64,000 bases of DNA from a virus: IMG/VR virus record IMGVR_UViG_3300030329_003954, positions 1 through 64,000 of that record; one strand, given 5' to 3'. The notes beneath the pieces were generated by a model. The model saw only the letters and a program-made list of their open reading frames with translations. It had not been told where the DNA came from and did no database searches. Below are positions 1,715 to 48,113 of this stretch, piece after piece. Position numbers and translations under genes: made by a program. Numbering within the stretch: position 1 is the first letter of the stretch; each line of letters begins with the position of its first letter.

Positions 1715-4444
1715 ATGAAGTCCTTCCCTTACAACGCGATCATCACAAAGTCTCCTGAAGTGATAGACTCCTTATTTTTCCCCACGAACAGGCAGAGGAT
1801 AAGTTTTGATCAATTTATAAGGGACTTACCAGAGGAAGATAAATCAAACCTTCTTGTTCTATCGCCAGGAAGAGGTTATGGCTTTTTAGAGCTTGACATA
1901 AACTTTCCTGAAGGTGGGGGTGTTAATAACTATGTTAATCTTAAGATGGTTGATACTTCAGAAATTGTTGATTTCTTTGTTGTTGATAGACATCCCGTGG
2001 ACAATGAAGTTATTAGAAGATTAGAAAGATCTGATAATTTTTTTAAAGACAAGATCCAAAAGCTAATAAAGAATTCAGGAAGGTTTTACTTGTCTTTTGG
2101 TGTTGGTGATGATCTTAGAAAATGGTCTGGCCCATACTCAATGCAGATTAGCAATGCGGTCATGAACGTAAATGCTGATGGAGTTAGGGAGATTGATTTA
2201 GGCTTTATTCCAAATCCTGAAAGTATTAAAGTATTCACAAACAGATTTTTTAATGACGCTGGTTACGCTCAGTTAGAATCCAAATTTGATTCTAAATCTA
2301 GAAAGAACAAAGAGATAGAAATAAGGACTGATTGTATTTTTGATGTTGAAAACGGCAGTCTCCCAGTTCGAAAGCCAGGGGGAGATAGTAGATGGAATTA
2401 CTGGGTTAGAAGAGTAGTAGCTGGATATTTAAACAACCTATACCCAGGCACGCCTGTCGGAAACATACTACCCTTATTTGGAACTGATCTTGATAGGCCA
2501 GCCGTAGGATCTAGTGATATAACTAATGGGATAATTAATATACCAAATGTAAATGAAAAAACAATTCTGGATCACGCTAAAAACTTAGCGAAGTTGGGGA
2601 TACTAATTACCGTTGAAGAAGAAGTTAAAGAATCTAAACCCAAAAAAGATCAAACTGAAAAAGTCTTACAGCAAAAGAGAGGACCTAACTCTACTATTGA
2701 TTCTGGCACAGTGGACTCTCCTGTGGATGCATTTAAGCAAGAAACAATTCCTGTTGACCCTGCATTTAAATCAGGCACAATTTCTGTAGACGCCGCACCT
2801 CTTGACCCATCAAGATTCGTAGCTGGAGAGTCGGACAATGAAAGGACAAATCGCATTGCTCGTGAGAGAAGAGAACTGAACTCATTAACCAGAGGGGGAC
2901 GTAGTATCCCAAGATCTAGCCAACCACCCTCTAGGGAAGAGATTCTTAATCGTTTAGCAGATGGGATATCACAGCCGGTGGTCGAATCTAAAGTAGCAAG
3001 ACAAAATCCAGACTATCTAGCAGAGACTGACAATCTTCTACCTCCAGTCATTAAGAAAGCTAAAATGACTATGATGCATAGGTGGAAAGCCGAGGACACC
3101 TCAGACTCTCTAAACACTTTAATGGCTCCCCTCTACACTTTTTACAGAGGTGTGAGACAACGTCGAAGCAAGAACATTCAATTTACAATGTTTGAAGAGA
3201 CAGACTCACACATTCTCAAATTCTTGAAAGAGTCTAATGTGATAGAGGACGAAACCAAGCCCGTAATTGTTTTTGGTGAGAAAGAGATAATTAAAAACCT
3301 AATGTACCCTGCTCAGGAGTATGCCACTGTAGCTGCCGCTCATGAAAATAATGAGTTCAAAGACTTCCAAGGCTCTGCTGCTGGAAGTGAAGTTGGATTT
3401 GAATCAACTTTTACATACAACCCCACGGGCCGCTTGGGTGATTGGCCTAGGTATTCTAAGAAATTTGTAAATCACTTTTACAATTCTGTCAGAGGCCGCA
3501 CTTCTTCTTTCGGGGAGGCGATCGACTTTGGACCTTTCACTAAATCATTGAAAGATAAGGTAAAAGGCAGTGATTTGGTTTTCATGCATAATGTAAAAAA
3601 CACAAATGTTTTAGACGTTAGGTTTGAGAATGTAGGGTATTACGCGAGTTTATTAAGTTTAGCTGCGGAGTCTAAACTATTATCGGTGGCAAACAACAAA
3701 GCAACTTCTGAAATAATATCTGATAACAGATTGGGCTTATCGGAGATAGCTGAATACGTTTCTAAGAAAACAAAAGACATTCCAAAAGACGATATTAAGT
3801 TAAACGTCTTGGAGATGTTAAAAAAAGATAAAGGGCTTAAGAGACTTGTATTTTTAAAAGATGATTTAAAAAATACAAAAGTCGTAGACTTTTTAGATGT
3901 TATCACGTTCTTAGTAACAGGTGATGCCCTCCCTTCCCCAGGCCCCGTTGTAAAGGTACGACCTGGAGAGAGGCACAAAGTTTATGCTGATGTTCTAGAG
4001 GATATAAGCAAGTATACTATAAATGCAGATGTTAGAACCGTTCCATTCTTTAATCAACCCAAGCTTTTTGGAAGAGAGTGTTTTCTTTTTGGATTGAGCA
4101 ATAAAGTTGTCGGATCCATTCTAGATAAAACAAAAACATACGCTCCCTTTACCGGAAGATATCTAGTAGTGGGGACTAGACACTACATGTCTAGCAATGA
4201 TGCATTTTCAAGTTTTAAGTTGTTAAGAATAGATGCAGTGGGGAATCCTACTCAAGAGTCATTGGACATTTTAAACATGACCATTGGTGAGTTTGTGGGG
4301 GAGTTTATGAGTTACATGAACGTGAGGGTAGGAGAGGAGGAAGACCTAGAAAAGCTTGCTCAACGTGGTGAAGAGCGCGGTCTGTTTATTAAACCGGCTA
4401 TTCAAAGGTTTGTTAACTATTTTAAAAACTTATTTACGGATTAA
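1715..4444 (+). CDS. Baseplate hub protein (gp27/gpD-like) with a large central insertion
   Basis: C-terminal TGRYLVVGTRHYMSSNDAFSSFKLLR is typical of hub proteins; lies between LysM and spike genes. Confidence 0.55.
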   Translation: MKSFPYNAIITKSPEVIDSLFFPTNRQRISFDQFIRDLPEEDKSNLLVLSPGRGYGFLELDINFPEGGGVNNYVNLKMVDTSEIVDFFVVDRHPVDNEVIRRLERSDNFFKDKIQKLIKNSGRFYLSFGVGDDLRKWSGPYSMQISNAVMNVNADGVREIDLGFIPNPESIKVFTNRFFNDAGYAQLESKFDSKSRKNKEIEIRTDCIFDVENGSLPVRKPGGDSRWNYWVRRVVAGYLNNLYPGTPVGNILPLFGTDLDRPAVGSSDITNGIINIPNVNEKTILDHAKNLAKLGILITVEEEVKESKPKKDQTEKVLQQKRGPNSTIDSGTVDSPVDAFKQETIPVDPAFKSGTISVDAAPLDPSRFVAGESDNERTNRIARERRELNSLTRGGRSIPRSSQPPSREEILNRLADGISQPVVESKVARQNPDYLAETDNLLPPVIKKAKMTMMHRWKAEDTSDSLNTLMAPLYTFYRGVRQRRSKNIQFTMFEETDSHILKFLKESNVIEDETKPVIVFGEKEIIKNLMYPAQEYATVAAAHENNEFKDFQGSAAGSEVGFESTFTYNPTGRLGDWPRYSKKFVNHFYNSVRGRTSSFGEAIDFGPFTKSLKDKVKGSDLVFMHNVKNTNVLDVRFENVGYYASLLSLAAESKLLSVANNKATSEIISDNRLGLSEIAEYVSKKTKDIPKDDIKLNVLEMLKKDKGLKRLVFLKDDLKNTKVVDFLDVITFLVTGDALPSPGPVVKVRPGERHKVYADVLEDISKYTINADVRTVPFFNQPKLFGRECFLFGLSNKVVGSILDKTKTYAPFTGRYLVVGTRHYMSSNDAFSSFKLLRIDAVGNPTQESLDILNMTIGEFVGEFMSYMNVRVGEEEDLEKLAQRGEERGLFIKPAIQRFVNYFKNLFTD

Positions 4445-43990: not shown

Positions 43991-44007
43991 TTACCTATCA
44001 TAGTCTT
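43991..44007. promoter_or_regulatory. 17-bp symmetric bidirectional leaderless promoter
   Basis: + strand TATCAT-6nt-ATG(44008); - strand TATGAT-6nt-GTG(43990). Confidence 0.7.
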
Positions 44008-45042
44008 ATGCCACAACTAAGTTTCCAGGGTGTCAACTCCAAGTGTGAGGGTTGCCCTGCGTTGAAGATGAATCTACCGACGCATACGATCTTGGACTAT
44101 GAGTACAAAAACACTCCAGTAGACATCCTCTTCATATCTGATTCAGCAAAGATGTTTGAAGGTGAGTTTACCGCCTTTCGACCGCAAGAGTACAGCATCA
44201 TCCAGCGTGAGCTTGCCAGATTTTCAAAGGATTGGGATGTTGGCTATACAACCGCTGTAAAGTGTCCCAATATTACTTCTGAGAATCTCAGCACTGGTAT
44301 AAAAAAATCATGTAAGATTCACCTACATGATACAATCGATCACTACAAGCCTCGACTTGTCTTCGCTTGTGGAAAGGTCGCGACCACCCTTTTATATGGT
44401 AAAGCAAAGGAGGAGAGTAAGATTCGAGGCAAGGTTGATACCTTGGCAACGGAGACTGGGACAGAGTTCCAGGTTGTCCCAGTTATTCACCCGTTCCAAG
44501 TCGTGGCAGAGCCTAAGAACGCTTATCTTTTCAGGACCGACCTAGAGAATGCTCTAAATAACGAGCTATTAGGGAAGGCTACAGACGCTCAAGTGGACCA
44601 TACTCTTGCTTTGAGCATAGGGGAATTGGACGAGGTAAGTGGTGATTTTATTGATACCAACATGGATCTTGCTGTGGATATTGAGACTACGGGTCTCAAT
44701 TTTCTTGAGGATACAATTCACACAATCTCAATGACGCTTGTCAATCGCGATAGTGGTGAGCTTGGCAGAACCTTAGTATTACCCATTGATCATAAAGAAG
44801 CAAAGCTTGGTTATAAGGTGAAAGGTGCTTTTATGCGATTCATCTGTCAGGCTATGGCGAATAAAAATAACAGAAAGATATTGCAGAATGCGGGTTTCGA
44901 CCTTAAGTTCTTGAAGAGGTATGGTGTCGAAGATGTGTATAATGTTTACGACACTAAACTCCTCCAACACCTATACAAAGAGGATGTTCCTAAGTCGCTT
45001 GCTGATCTCGTGTACTACTACTTCCCAGAAGAAAAGTTCTAA
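44008..45042 (+). CDS. polA: Family A DNA polymerase part 1: UDG family 4-like Fe-S domain plus 3'-5' exonuclease ExoI/II
   Basis: CEGCPAL...AVKCP...SC, VFACGKVA, IHP; DIETTGL; QNAGFDLKFL; YDTKL. Confidence 0.85.
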   Translation: MPQLSFQGVNSKCEGCPALKMNLPTHTILDYEYKNTPVDILFISDSAKMFEGEFTAFRPQEYSIIQRELARFSKDWDVGYTTAVKCPNITSENLSTGIKKSCKIHLHDTIDHYKPRLVFACGKVATTLLYGKAKEESKIRGKVDTLATETGTEFQVVPVIHPFQVVAEPKNAYLFRTDLENALNNELLGKATDAQVDHTLALSIGELDEVSGDFIDTNMDLAVDIETTGLNFLEDTIHTISMTLVNRDSGELGRTLVLPIDHKEAKLGYKVKGAFMRFICQAMANKNNRKILQNAGFDLKFLKRYGVEDVYNVYDTKLLQHLYKEDVPKSLADLVYYYFPEEKF

Positions 45043-45566
45043 TGCTAACAGTTGAAGGTAAGAAGTTTGATTGGAAGAATATCCCATTGATTCAATGCGT
45101 TGAGGGTAATGCAAAGGATACCTATGCCACCGCAAAGGTGTATGTAAAACTACTCGAAGAGGTTCGTCAGAAGAAGTTAGAGCACCTATACGAGAAGTTA
45201 ATCGCACCTCTGACAGTTGCCTTTCGTGACATGGAGTTTGAAGGATTGCTTATCGATGAGGATAAGCTCAACGAGTTGGATCAGCAACTTCAAGACAAGC
45301 TCAAACTGGCTGACATTGCTTTGCGAGACGCTGCTGGTTTGGAGGAGGACGCCAACCTTAATTCCACTAATCAGCTTGTGAAAATTATCTATTCATTTGA
45401 GAAGAATGATGAAGGTGAATGGATTCAAGTTGACGACTTCGGTCTTGGACTGTATCCTTTCGAGTTTACTAAAAAGGGCGCACCTTCTACCAACGAAGAA
45501 ACGTTGACTAAGGTGAAAGCCATGGTTGAAGAAGAGTTCACAGCGAGAGGCTTGAAGGTTGAATAA
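45042..45566 (+). CDS. polA: Family A DNA polymerase part 2: ExoIII helix plus N-terminal thumb
   Basis: NAKDTYAT, DMEFEGLLID, NLNSTNQL, TKKGAPSTNEETL. Confidence 0.85.
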   Translation: MLTVEGKKFDWKNIPLIQCVEGNAKDTYATAKVYVKLLEEVRQKKLEHLYEKLIAPLTVAFRDMEFEGLLIDEDKLNELDQQLQDKLKLADIALRDAAGLEEDANLNSTNQLVKIIYSFEKNDEGEWIQVDDFGLGLYPFEFTKKGAPSTNEETLTKVKAMVEEEFTARGLKVE

Positions 45567-46623
45567 CGAAGAAGTAAGCATCGCCAAGGCAGTCCTGAAC
45601 AACATGTCGAATGACCAGTTGAAGGCTGCTAAGAAGTTCTTTGATCGTTTCTCGGAGTATAAAAAGCTGACCAAGCTTCACTCTGTTTACATTGAAGGTG
45701 CTCGCACCGCACTACAGAATACTGGTAACAGTAGAATGTATGTGAAGTATAACATCGATGGTACGGTTACAGGGCGAATCTCAAACTCTGGTGCCAACGT
45801 TGGTAGGAAGAAGACTGATAAAATTGGAGTGTCCTTCCACACTCTTCCTCGTGAGTCACTTGATGTAAATATTCGTGATTACGTGGTAGCCCCAGAGGGT
45901 CACGACTTTATCACGATCGACATGAAAGCCATGGAGCTAAGAGTTCTCGCTCATGTTGCCAATGAGGAGAACATGATTCACGCCTTTAAATCTGGCGTGG
46001 ACTTGCACAGCTATTCTGCTGGATTGACGTTCAATAAGGACCCCAAAGATGTGAGTAAACTTGAACGACAGATCGCGAAAGAAGTGAGCTTCTTAACAGT
46101 GTATGGCGGAACTGCATACACTCTTGCTTCGAAGCGTAACATTCCAGAGGATCGCGCTGAGGAGATTATCAATAGTTGGCTAGCGGCTTTCCCAGGTGTA
46201 GGCCGATACATGAACACTATCGACGAATACATTAAACAGTTTGGTTACGCTAAGACCATCTTCGGTCGTTATCGCCACCTCCCTAATGTCCGCTCACCAT
46301 TCAAGGGCGTCCGTCGCGAGGCGTTCCGACAAGGTTTGAACTTTACAATTCAATCTGCCGCCAGCGATATCCTACTGTGCGGTATGCTTGGTGTGATTGA
46401 GAAGCTTAAGGGTATGAAGGCTAAAGTTGTAGCCACTGTTCACGACTCAATTGAACTCATAGCTCCTAAAGAAGAGACTAGGAGGGTCGTTGAAATTGTT
46501 AGCGACGAGCTTGAAAACTACCACTATCTAAAAGACAACTTCAACATTCACTTGAAGGTACCGCTGGGTGTTGATGTTGAAGTTGGTTCTAGCTTTGGTA
46601 ATGGTGTTGAGTATGAACTTTAA
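45559..46623 (+). CDS. polA: Family A DNA polymerase part 3: palm/fingers catalytic domain
   Basis: GTVTGRISNS, DMKAMELRVLAH (motif A), RQIAKEVSFLTVYG (B), NFTIQSAASD, VHDS (C); TTG start with GAGAGG SD. Confidence 0.92.
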   Translation: MNNEEVSIAKAVLNNMSNDQLKAAKKFFDRFSEYKKLTKLHSVYIEGARTALQNTGNSRMYVKYNIDGTVTGRISNSGANVGRKKTDKIGVSFHTLPRESLDVNIRDYVVAPEGHDFITIDMKAMELRVLAHVANEENMIHAFKSGVDLHSYSAGLTFNKDPKDVSKLERQIAKEVSFLTVYGGTAYTLASKRNIPEDRAEEIINSWLAAFPGVGRYMNTIDEYIKQFGYAKTIFGRYRHLPNVRSPFKGVRREAFRQGLNFTIQSAASDILLCGMLGVIEKLKGMKAKVVATVHDSIELIAPKEETRRVVEIVSDELENYHYLKDNFNIHLKVPLGVDVEVGSSFGNGVEYEL

Positions 46624-48113
46624 CGACCTAGGTAATCCATCACTCCTAGCCATTTAGGGGCAGTGCTCTTGTGTTGAGTTTGCCATTCTAAAAGACCGAA
46701 AGAGCCGTATCTCCCAAAGTCTCCTGTGAGCCTATACAGCATAAAGAGATCGGCTCCCTCACTAAACCACTCATCGAGATCGATGTAGTAAAGCTGCCGC
46801 ATACCTGGATCTCTGTTGGCTGCTACAAATAAGTTTGTAAGCGTTTGATTGTTTTGTGCGGCACCTACACCTACAAGATGCTGACCCCCTTCGTAGGCAA
46901 GCAATCTCAAGCCTCTTTGGTTTGTGTCAATTTTATTTTGCCTAGTGAACACATGGTGATTATTGACTATGTTTGCCTGACAGAGGGTGAGAAGATAGGG
47001 TATCGAAAAGGTCGGAGCTAGCGGAACGTTGTTTAGATTCCCAAAACCACCGCCAAAGTAAGGGGCGACCGCAAATGCATCAGCACTTTCATATGCATTC
47101 TGCCAGTCCATGATCTGCCTATTAATCCAAGGGTTAACACTCTGACCTGCAAGCACTCGTACAAGTCTCCTGTCATTTAACTGATTATACATGTTAGAGA
47201 ACAGGTTGAAAACTTCCACTGATCTTTGAGAATAAAATAACCAGCCAGCGTGCCAAGGCTGTGGATTAAGCCCCAAAGCCATGCCTTCATTTTGTGCGTA
47301 AGTATTTTGATCGAAGATTCCGTTCCATACTTCATTACTATATTCCAAATAAATTGTAAGTGATGGGTCTAGAGCGATTCGACATAATAAAGCAAGATAC
47401 TGAACATATAGGTCGTTTGCCATGTGAGGCACACAGATCCACATGTTCTTACATGTCTTGTTGCACAGATCAATCATGTACAACGGGTGGACACCTTCTG
47501 ATGTAGCCTGCGTGTAATTATAAAAGTTGGTAGCATCATACCAATTGATCACAGGATTATCGTTGGTCCTACCCCAATTCATGAACCTAATCGTATCGAA
47601 AGGCTCCAAGCTCTTCATGAAATCAGGATGAAATATTCTTTGTGAGTTATCATATCCAGGTAAGTAGACTCTAATATTTTCAATGGGCTGGACGATGTCA
47701 GTAATTCTAAGTGTAAAATACCCATCGCTTGGGACCTGTAAATTAATTTTAATGTGGCCTTGAGTCTGTTGAACTATTGTAACAGAACCATTACCTCCTG
47801 CTAAGGGTTGGACAGTTCCGACACCGTCGTATCGAATATTGTAGATGCCGTCAGGGTAGTTGGGAGAACCATTGGAGAATATGATAGATTCAATCCACTG
47901 ATTAGACTGAAGACTCTGAGGCCATCCCAACTCATCTGTAATGACTGTTGGGCCTGTGCCCCATGAGAATGGACTTGCTTGGTGGCTTATCCATTCACGG
48001 GAGCTTTTAAAAGCGTCTACGAAGGGAGTCTGCTGGTGCCAGTCAGTGACTGTCTCTAAATTAATACCAACAGGGCCTTGTGGGGCGAGAGCGAGCAGCA
48101 TTGAAAGTAGCAT
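46620..48113 (-). CDS. Secreted glycoside-hydrolase-like (clan GH-A, 'cellulose-binding protein' type) protein
   Basis: Signal-like MLLSMLLALAPQ; IRFMNW, MWICVPH, YLEYSNEVWN, AYEGGQH. Confidence 0.7.
   Translation of the reverse strand: MLLSMLLALAPQGPVGINLETVTDWHQQTPFVDAFKSSREWISHQASPFSWGTGPTVITDELGWPQSLQSNQWIESIIFSNGSPNYPDGIYNIRYDGVGTVQPLAGGNGSVTIVQQTQGHIKINLQVPSDGYFTLRITDIVQPIENIRVYLPGYDNSQRIFHPDFMKSLEPFDTIRFMNWGRTNDNPVINWYDATNFYNYTQATSEGVHPLYMIDLCNKTCKNMWICVPHMANDLYVQYLALLCRIALDPSLTIYLEYSNEVWNGIFDQNTYAQNEGMALGLNPQPWHAGWLFYSQRSVEVFNLFSNMYNQLNDRRLVRVLAGQSVNPWINRQIMDWQNAYESADAFAVAPYFGGGFGNLNNVPLAPTFSIPYLLTLCQANIVNNHHVFTRQNKIDTNQRGLRLLAYEGGQHLVGVGAAQNNQTLTNLFVAANRDPGMRQLYYIDLDEWFSEGADLFMLYRLTGDFGRYGSFGLLEWQTQHKSTAPKWLGVMDYLGR

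Follow-up and report, generated by a model that had tools for sequence, protein, structure and literature searches.

A family A DNA polymerase encoded in three pieces by uncultured marine T4-like phages, with breaks inside the exonuclease domain and the thumb

Do three short consecutive open reading frames (ORFs) that together resemble one DNA polymerase represent a damaged gene, a single chain restored during or after translation, or the separate subunits of one enzyme? The question is raised by positions 44008-46623 of a window of 64,000 nucleotides, the whole stretch of DNA analysed here, which is part (positions 1 to 64,000) of the 91-kb IMG/VR virus record IMGVR_UViG_3300030329_003954. 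The window encodes a T4-type major head protein and a tail sheath, and the source phage is therefore an uncultured marine, T4-like myovirus. The three ORFs follow each other on the plus strand, as do all features of the locus described below, and encode 344, 174, and 354 residues (ORF1, 44008-45042; ORF2, 45042-45566; ORF3, 45559-46623), with ORF1 and ORF3 in the same frame and ORF2 at -1. An earlier reading of the locus from its letters (the sequence-only reading) had regarded them as collinear with a single enzyme composed of uracil-DNA glycosylase (UDG), 3'-5' exonuclease (Exo), and family A polymerase (PolA). This is borne out by the successive positions of the Pfam matches and by a single DNA polymerase profile, phrog_17, which is matched at 546-785 by ORF1, at 796-920 by ORF2, and at 929-1237 by ORF3 without overlap or gap. 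We conclude that the three ORFs are very probably separately initiated genes of one UDG-Exo-PolA replicase, whose products would assemble non-covalently as a heterotrimer.

Each of the three pieces holds a defined part of this enzyme. ORF1 comprises a family-4 UDG-like domain and the N-terminal two thirds of the exonuclease domain. It matches the Pfam UDG profile (PF03167) with 30.6 bits (cutoff 24.3), which places a UDG superfamily domain N-terminal to the exonuclease, and DNA_pol_A_exo1 (PF01612) with 42.9 bits over profile positions 22-128 of 173; a sequence match to ORF1 was not found in PDB. In the UDG-like domain (44008-44562) Cys13, Cys16, Cys86, and Cys102 are invariant, which is consistent with an iron-sulfur UDG of family 4, and SDS stands at what we take to be the position of the first catalytic motif of that family. 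The ExoI motif DIETTG (44677-44694; D224, E226) and the ExoII motif NAGFD (44887-44901; N294 to D298) are both part of ORF1. ORF2 contains the last exonuclease helix with the ExoIII motif GNAKD (45105-45119), in which the Asp is kept and the canonical Tyr is replaced by Gly, the first palm helices, thumb helix H, and half of an insertion at the tip of the thumb, and would thus be a bridging subunit. It aligns to the exonuclease end, palm, and thumb of Bst and Klenow polymerases, and its match to Pfam DNA_pol_A (PF00476; profile 2-70) of 17.3 bits is below the cutoff of 34.3. ORF3 provides the remaining half of the thumb-tip insertion as well as thumb helix I, the fingers, and the catalytic palm, and matches the same profile with 243.5 bits (cutoff 34.3) over positions 57-380 of 381, and Taq, Bst, and Klenow polymerases with E 1e-33 to 1e-44. 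The polymerase motifs A (DMKAMELR, 45919-45942), B (RQIAKEVSFLTVYGG, 46066-46110), and C (46441-46449) are all found on ORF3, with D121, E126, L127, and R128 invariant in or near the first, R170, K174, F178, Y182, and G183 in the second, and H295, D296, S297, and E299 in the third. Motif C reads HDS in place of the usual HDE. Its catalytic Asp is retained, the change of Glu to Ser is invariant in the clade, and another invariant Glu follows two residues on (HDSxE).

The breaks between the pieces were placed by aligning them with single-chain UDG-Exo-PolA relatives from a protein library (P0100, P0114, P0119, and others). Because ExoI and ExoII are on ORF1 and ExoIII is on ORF2, break 1 falls between ExoII and ExoIII, in agreement with the sequence-only reading. 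It coincides with a loop of variable length between the helix after ExoII and the segment bearing ExoIII. Residues 12-157 of ORF2 align to positions 164-293 of the Klenow chain, and residues 32-341 of ORF3 to positions 305-596. Residue 20 of ORF3 aligns with Taq residue 521, where thumb helix I starts. Break 2 had been assigned to the inside of the thumb, and the alignments to Klenow and Taq place it at the thumb tip, between a conserved PSTxxE.L helix and a (L)xEY(R/K)KxxKL helix, the latter being equivalent to Taq 521-547 and to Klenow from about residue 628 onward (thumb helix I). At this tip, members of the split clade have approximately 35-40 additional residues that are absent from single-chain forms. 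We presume that the thioredoxin-binding insertion of T7 gp5 is also sited at the thumb tip.

The same layout is found in many relatives. A scan of IMG/VR with ORF3 identified 37 loci (ORF3 73-99% identical), 35 of which extend far enough upstream, and all 35 have the three ORFs; a continuous ORF was not found among the close loci examined. A second scan with an alignment of distant piece-2 homologues added 52 contigs with ORF2 identities of 32-52%, all of which are tripartite where the sequence is present. The same two breakpoints, which the earlier reading had proposed to look for in related contigs, thus recur in about 90 independent contigs that stem from a large number of samples and assemblers, which is far beyond chance. 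With ORF2 as query, a library of 1.84 billion representative proteins yielded 182 matches (E up to 0.001). Among the best 100 of these, about 95 are stand-alone proteins of 150-180 residues that align end-to-end with 30-55% identity, and the piece-2 homologues among the best matches all start with ML. The piece-2 gene is present in JGI, ENA, Logan, NCBI, and Tara assemblies, on contigs of up to about 124 kb. Searches of 50,697 phage records with the region (blastn) and with ORF2 (tblastn) gave no match, and the identity of ORF3 to cultured phages is about 31% at most. Judged from these comparisons, this phage is not alone in having the split, which has long been a trait of a large marine clade. 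The pieces evolve at different rates, ORF1 being 52% and ORF3 73% identical at the same loci. The start of piece 2 is particularly conserved, as 40 sequences with identities as low as 28% all have Met1-Leu2. Because Leu2 is invariant even where ORF2 does not overlap ORF1, it must be under constraint at the protein level. The comparisons establish how the genes are arranged, that this arrangement is conserved, and that the three cistrons are independent of each other.

Whether the three chains come together was addressed by one complex prediction with residues 190-344 of ORF1, ORF2, and ORF3, using a 28-row alignment for each. ORF2 scored 0.91 against the other chains. The best of three controls reached 0.71; in this control only ORF3 had been swapped and ORF1 was still there, while both controls with a swapped ORF2 gave 0.00. 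The pass mark of the prediction is reached by 58 of 80 solved complexes and by 2 of 110 mismatched pairs. At least 97% of the contacts agree between runs, and the predicted local distance difference test score (pLDDT) of the partners is at least 82. Residues 19-46 of ORF2 are predicted to contact the ExoI/ExoII region of ORF1, and residues 48-98 and 155-173 to contact residues 2-66 and 102-112 of ORF3. If ORF2 is modelled alone with AlphaFold2, it consists of extended helices (pLDDT 82, predicted template modelling score 0.52), which would suit a bridge that lacks its own core. A Foldseek search with this model returned no more than weak matches to PolA (E 0.02), which is unsurprising for a fragment that is not globular. 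Co-folding of the three chains, which had been suggested as a check, therefore points to their physical assembly, and together with the comparisons it supports the proposal of a three-polypeptide replicase whose exonuclease site is completed in trans.

In the mechanism that we envisage, the overlapping stop and start codons at both junctions would couple the translation of the three ORFs and, together with the GA-rich Shine-Dalgarno-like sequence upstream, should lead to similar amounts of the three chains. Piece 1 would contribute the UDG-like domain along with the carboxylates of ExoI and ExoII. The bridge would be piece 2, whose first helix with the ExoIII Asp would complete the exonuclease fold of piece 1 and whose remainder would make up thumb helix H and the beginning of the palm. 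Thumb helix I, the fingers, and the catalytic palm would come from piece 3, and the two halves of the thumb-tip insertion are predicted to pack as helices.

The most serious alternative accepts the heterotrimer but takes the split exonuclease site to have lost most or all of its catalytic activity and to be kept purely as a structural scaffold, as in exonuclease-deficient PolAs, so that there would be no proofreading in trans. Of the features of a DEDDy exonuclease, DxE, NxxxD, and the ExoIII Asp are present, and the Tyr of ExoIII (YxxxD) is absent. ExoIII is GNAxD in the entire split clade, with G22, N23, and D26 of ORF2 invariant or almost so, whereas single-chain relatives have YxxxD in the same alignment column. 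Furthermore, the exonuclease domain is needed for the stability of PolA even if it is inactive (Czernecki 2023, PMC10201439). However, D224, E226, and D298 of ORF1 are invariant in 28 relatives, and all four metal-binding carboxylates (D224, E226, D298, and D26) are invariant down to about 30-40% identity, which would not be expected for a dead site. In addition, a polymerase that copies a genome of about 100 kb should be expected to proofread. We therefore regard a dead site as unlikely, and because the four carboxylates are invariant, proofreading is likely retained in the split enzyme.

A second alternative is that programmed ribosomal frameshifting joins the ORFs into one polypeptide, by -1 near an A_AAG tetramer and by +1 at the ORF2 stop. 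The arrangement of the frames would allow this: ORF1 and ORF3 share a frame, ORF2 is at -1, and the A_AAG is indeed present at 45033-45036, with the -1 frame open for 12 codons ahead of the ORF2 ATG, as the sequence-only reading had pointed out in support of recoding. However, the tetramer is not conserved, being replaced in relatives by GAGAAG, GAAGAA, or GAGGTC; an X_XXY_YYZ heptamer is absent, and Rfam detected no frameshift element. In many relatives the frame of ORF2 is closed 1-4 codons before its ATG. The junctions themselves look like gene borders. Junction 1 is a TAATG (45040-45044), in which the ORF1 stop TAA and the ORF2 start ATG overlap by one base. This kind of overlap had been described as typical of the structural operon, where eight further gene borders are alike. 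A stop/start overlap of this type (TAATG, TGATG, or TAGTG) is found in 67 of 84 relatives; ORF2 is detached in 12, and 5 have other overlaps or spacings. In L016 the TAATG is changed to TAGTG, so that stop and start have been altered together, and L030 has TAATATG with a changed frame offset. At junction 2 (TTGAATAA, 45559-45566), ORF3 with its start codon TTG (45559-45561) and ORF2 with its stop TAA overlap by eight bases. The start lies at -5 from the ORF2 stop in 59 of 86 relatives, with GTG, TTG, and ATG interchanging there. In other lineages it is shifted (-41 to +5), sometimes with a new frame offset (L034, L067, L081, and L117 differ), and one relative has the two genes detached. A start codon is present at each junction in all relatives. 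As noted before, GAGAGG (45545-45550) is found 8 nucleotides upstream of the TTG. AGAGG is retained in the close relatives, and the majority of the distant ones have GAGGA or AAGGAG. Because GAGAGG also codes for a conserved Arg-Gly, it is only a putative Shine-Dalgarno sequence.

Frameshifting is also hard to imagine where the genes lie apart. In the 12 relatives with a detached ORF2, 42-618 nucleotides separate it from ORF1, and the inserts include genes on the opposite strand. L068 has an HNH_3 endonuclease gene (206-209 residues, Pfam E 4.9e-10) at 2388-3014, exactly at break 1. L094, L099, L106, and L109 have members of an opposite-strand gene family (100-170 residues, motif GESIWNTY.xM) between pieces 1 and 2, in gaps of 300-570 nucleotides located before position 3001. 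L105 has a P-loop kinase-like gene (3486-4058; Pfam P-mevalo_kinase E 6.7e-12, and a weak match to deoxynucleoside monophosphate kinases) between pieces 2 and 3. The detached copies of ORF2 may also have their own transcription signals. They are preceded by CTATTATATAG-N2-ATG, which resembles the CTATCATAG-N4-ATG before ORF1 in the window, where CTATCATAG is read at 43995-44003, 4 nucleotides ahead of the ATG. The common motif CTAT(T/C)AT(AT)AG is found 2-4 nucleotides before the start codon of ORF1 in the window (43995-44010) and of the detached ORF2 in L074, L094, L096, L099, L106, L109, L114, and L116. It looks like a promoter, which would give leaderless or near-leaderless mRNAs. With an unconserved tetramer, varying frame offsets, and physically separable pieces, the idea of -1 recoding did not hold up, and we consider a frameshifted single chain very improbable.

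The remaining two alternatives have a negligible probability. Two compensating frame changes could conceivably be indels introduced by sequencing or assembly, or the locus could be a decaying pseudogene, but about 90 independent contigs have the same breaks, contigs of four other runs from two studies span both junctions without any indel, and catalytic motifs are conserved in all three pieces. Joining of the pieces by split inteins or by an RNA-level intron has precedents: marine metagenomes contain fractured phage genes in which split inteins occur together with a free-standing endonuclease (PMC2677866), and LUZ24-type polymerase genes have introns. However, there is no spare sequence at either break, the junctions being overlaps of one and eight bases, and the earlier observation that no intein or intron is visible agrees with the scans, in which Pfam detected neither an intein nor a Hint domain and Rfam recovered no intron family, either from the window or from the insert-bearing L068, L094, and L105. 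At E up to 0.1, the only Rfam match was one chance microRNA-like hit in L094. The HNH_3 insert of L068 is accompanied by neither intein halves nor an intron match, and the additional residues at break 2 (about 16 and about 30) are too short and have no intein motifs. Thus, the variation of the junctions, the inserts, the indel-free contigs, and the lack of intein, intron, and frameshift elements exclude error, frameshifting, inteins, and introns.

How could three separately initiated genes have evolved from one? A few of the library matches to ORF2 (P0034, P0108, P0113, and P0138; 515-563 residues) start at the same M/V-L-T/S residue as piece 2 and run to the end of the polymerase. These are two-piece forms with break 1 only. 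In the two-piece loci L119 and L120, the upstream gene encodes the UDG and the exonuclease to profile position 128 of 173, as in the window. In L119, an ORF of 92 residues (2729-3007) separates the gene for UDG and Exo from the gene in which pieces 2 and 3 are fused. A maximum-likelihood tree groups all split forms into one clade (support of 100 in the Shimodaira-Hasegawa-like approximate likelihood ratio test, SH-aLRT) and the tripartite forms into one clade (SH-aLRT 88) nested within a two-piece grade. The tree was obtained by a quick search with 41 rows, and its root was assumed to be on nine single-chain relatives, several of which are long-branched. The thumb-tip insertion is continuous in P0034. 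In the simplest history, as the tree suggests, break 1 would have come first, followed by the thumb-tip insertion and then by break 2 inside the insertion. The breaks may have originated via gene insertion: relatives have foreign genes at both of them, one being a homing endonuclease, and this fits the known route to the 'genes in pieces' of T4-like phages (PMC2677866, PMC3045599).

Some points weigh against the heterotrimer and the history outlined here. Because solved structures of single-chain PolA exist, the pass of the complex prediction may reflect likeness to these, and the prediction was fed with alignments that we built ourselves. Catalysis may deviate in detail, because an invariant Gly replaces the ExoIII Tyr and motif C has HDS for HDE. 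The tree comes from a quick search and has long outgroup branches, an assumed root, and 88% support for the tripartite clade. As the window itself has no homing endonuclease, an origin of the breaks by homing endonucleases depends on one relative.

Split family A polymerases have been described before. In S-SBP1-like T7-like cyanophages, PolA is split in two at the boundary of exonuclease and polymerase (Czernecki 2023, PMC10201439; clade B in PMC12695635). There as here, the enzyme derives from adjacent, overlapping genes that were born by gene fission, frameshifting was excluded by comparison, and the predicted S-SBP1 complex superposes on uninterrupted relatives (PMC10201439). Unlike S-SBP1, the polymerase described here belongs to a myovirus, has a UDG-like N-terminal domain, and is cut into three pieces, within the exonuclease domain and within the thumb. 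A cut behind a complete exonuclease domain is not what we found, because ORF1 ends at exonuclease profile position 128 of 173, leaving ExoIII to ORF2. The UDG-PolA enzymes of cluster 17 (N4-like) and SPO1 are single polypeptides with a YxxxD ExoIII (Czernecki 2023, PMC10201439).

In the LUZ24-like Pseudomonas phages (Bruynoghevirus), PolA is likewise annotated as three ORFs (gp25 for the exonuclease subunit, gp34 and gp36 for parts of the polymerase), with an endonuclease gene between two of them. However, the breakpoints are not homologous: LUZ24 gp25 contains ExoI, ExoII, and a YxxxD ExoIII and thus the whole exonuclease domain, and the interruption between gp34 and gp36 carries an endonuclease VII gene. 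This interruption is reportedly an intron. The OM43 phages MEP401 and MEP402 are another marine example with a PolA split inside the polymerase domain, a small ORF between the parts, and conservation of the split in related genomes from metagenomes (PMC10580990). In contrast to the present case, they belong to another lineage and have two pieces with an intact exonuclease on the first, and an intron is suspected (PMC10580990).

A further parallel is provided by the intein-less 'genes in pieces' of T4-like phages, such as Aeh1 nrdA, which is split by mobE, and the split gp43 (PolB) of Aeromonas phage 25 (PMC3045599, PMC2677866, PMC2988022). In these as well, an essential replication enzyme of a T4-like phage is made of separately translated subunits, with reassembly being a prediction in our case, and a free-standing homing endonuclease resides at the break, comparable to the HNH gene at break 1 of L068. 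Unlike these two-piece ribonucleotide reductase and PolB genes, the window has no endonuclease at a break and its genes overlap, and unlike the fractured genes of Dassa et al. 2009, the breaks are not flanked by intein halves. Two-piece PolAs that are cut at the boundary of exonuclease and polymerase are already known, and three pieces with cuts inside domains are new. Our searches of the open-access literature turned up neither a PolA in three pieces nor one that is cut between ExoII and ExoIII.

The PolA fold thus seems to tolerate natural fission at two sites within domains, one of which parts the catalytic residues of the proofreading site. The three-piece form has been stable over a long evolution in widespread marine myoviruses and adds to the few split PolAs on record, which consist of two pieces with the cut at the domain boundary. 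A route to gene fission is suggested by the insertion of foreign genes, among them a homing endonuclease, at the breaks, and these offer natural positions for engineered split polymerases. The three-subunit layout could even be functional and not merely tolerated. Because the bridging subunit of 174 residues completes both the exonuclease site and the thumb, the supply or exchange of ORF2 could switch proofreading or processivity of the replicase on and off. We consider such a role rather doubtful. If it were true, the loss of the ExoIII Tyr would mean that the exonuclease site has been rebuilt around the interface between the subunits. For annotation, it is of practical importance that the 174-residue piece stays below the Pfam threshold and that surveys with polA as marker will meet truncated genes in this clade.

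Two further observations concern other parts of the window. Between positions 1715 and 28946, very large ORFs (865-1333 residues) follow each other in a row with one-base stop/start overlaps between them, and none of these large ORFs has a PHROG match at E 1e-5. At the other side of the polymerase genes, an ORF of 497 residues on the minus strand (46620-48113), which has no PHROG match and resembles glycoside hydrolases by eye only, converges on the polymerase operon.

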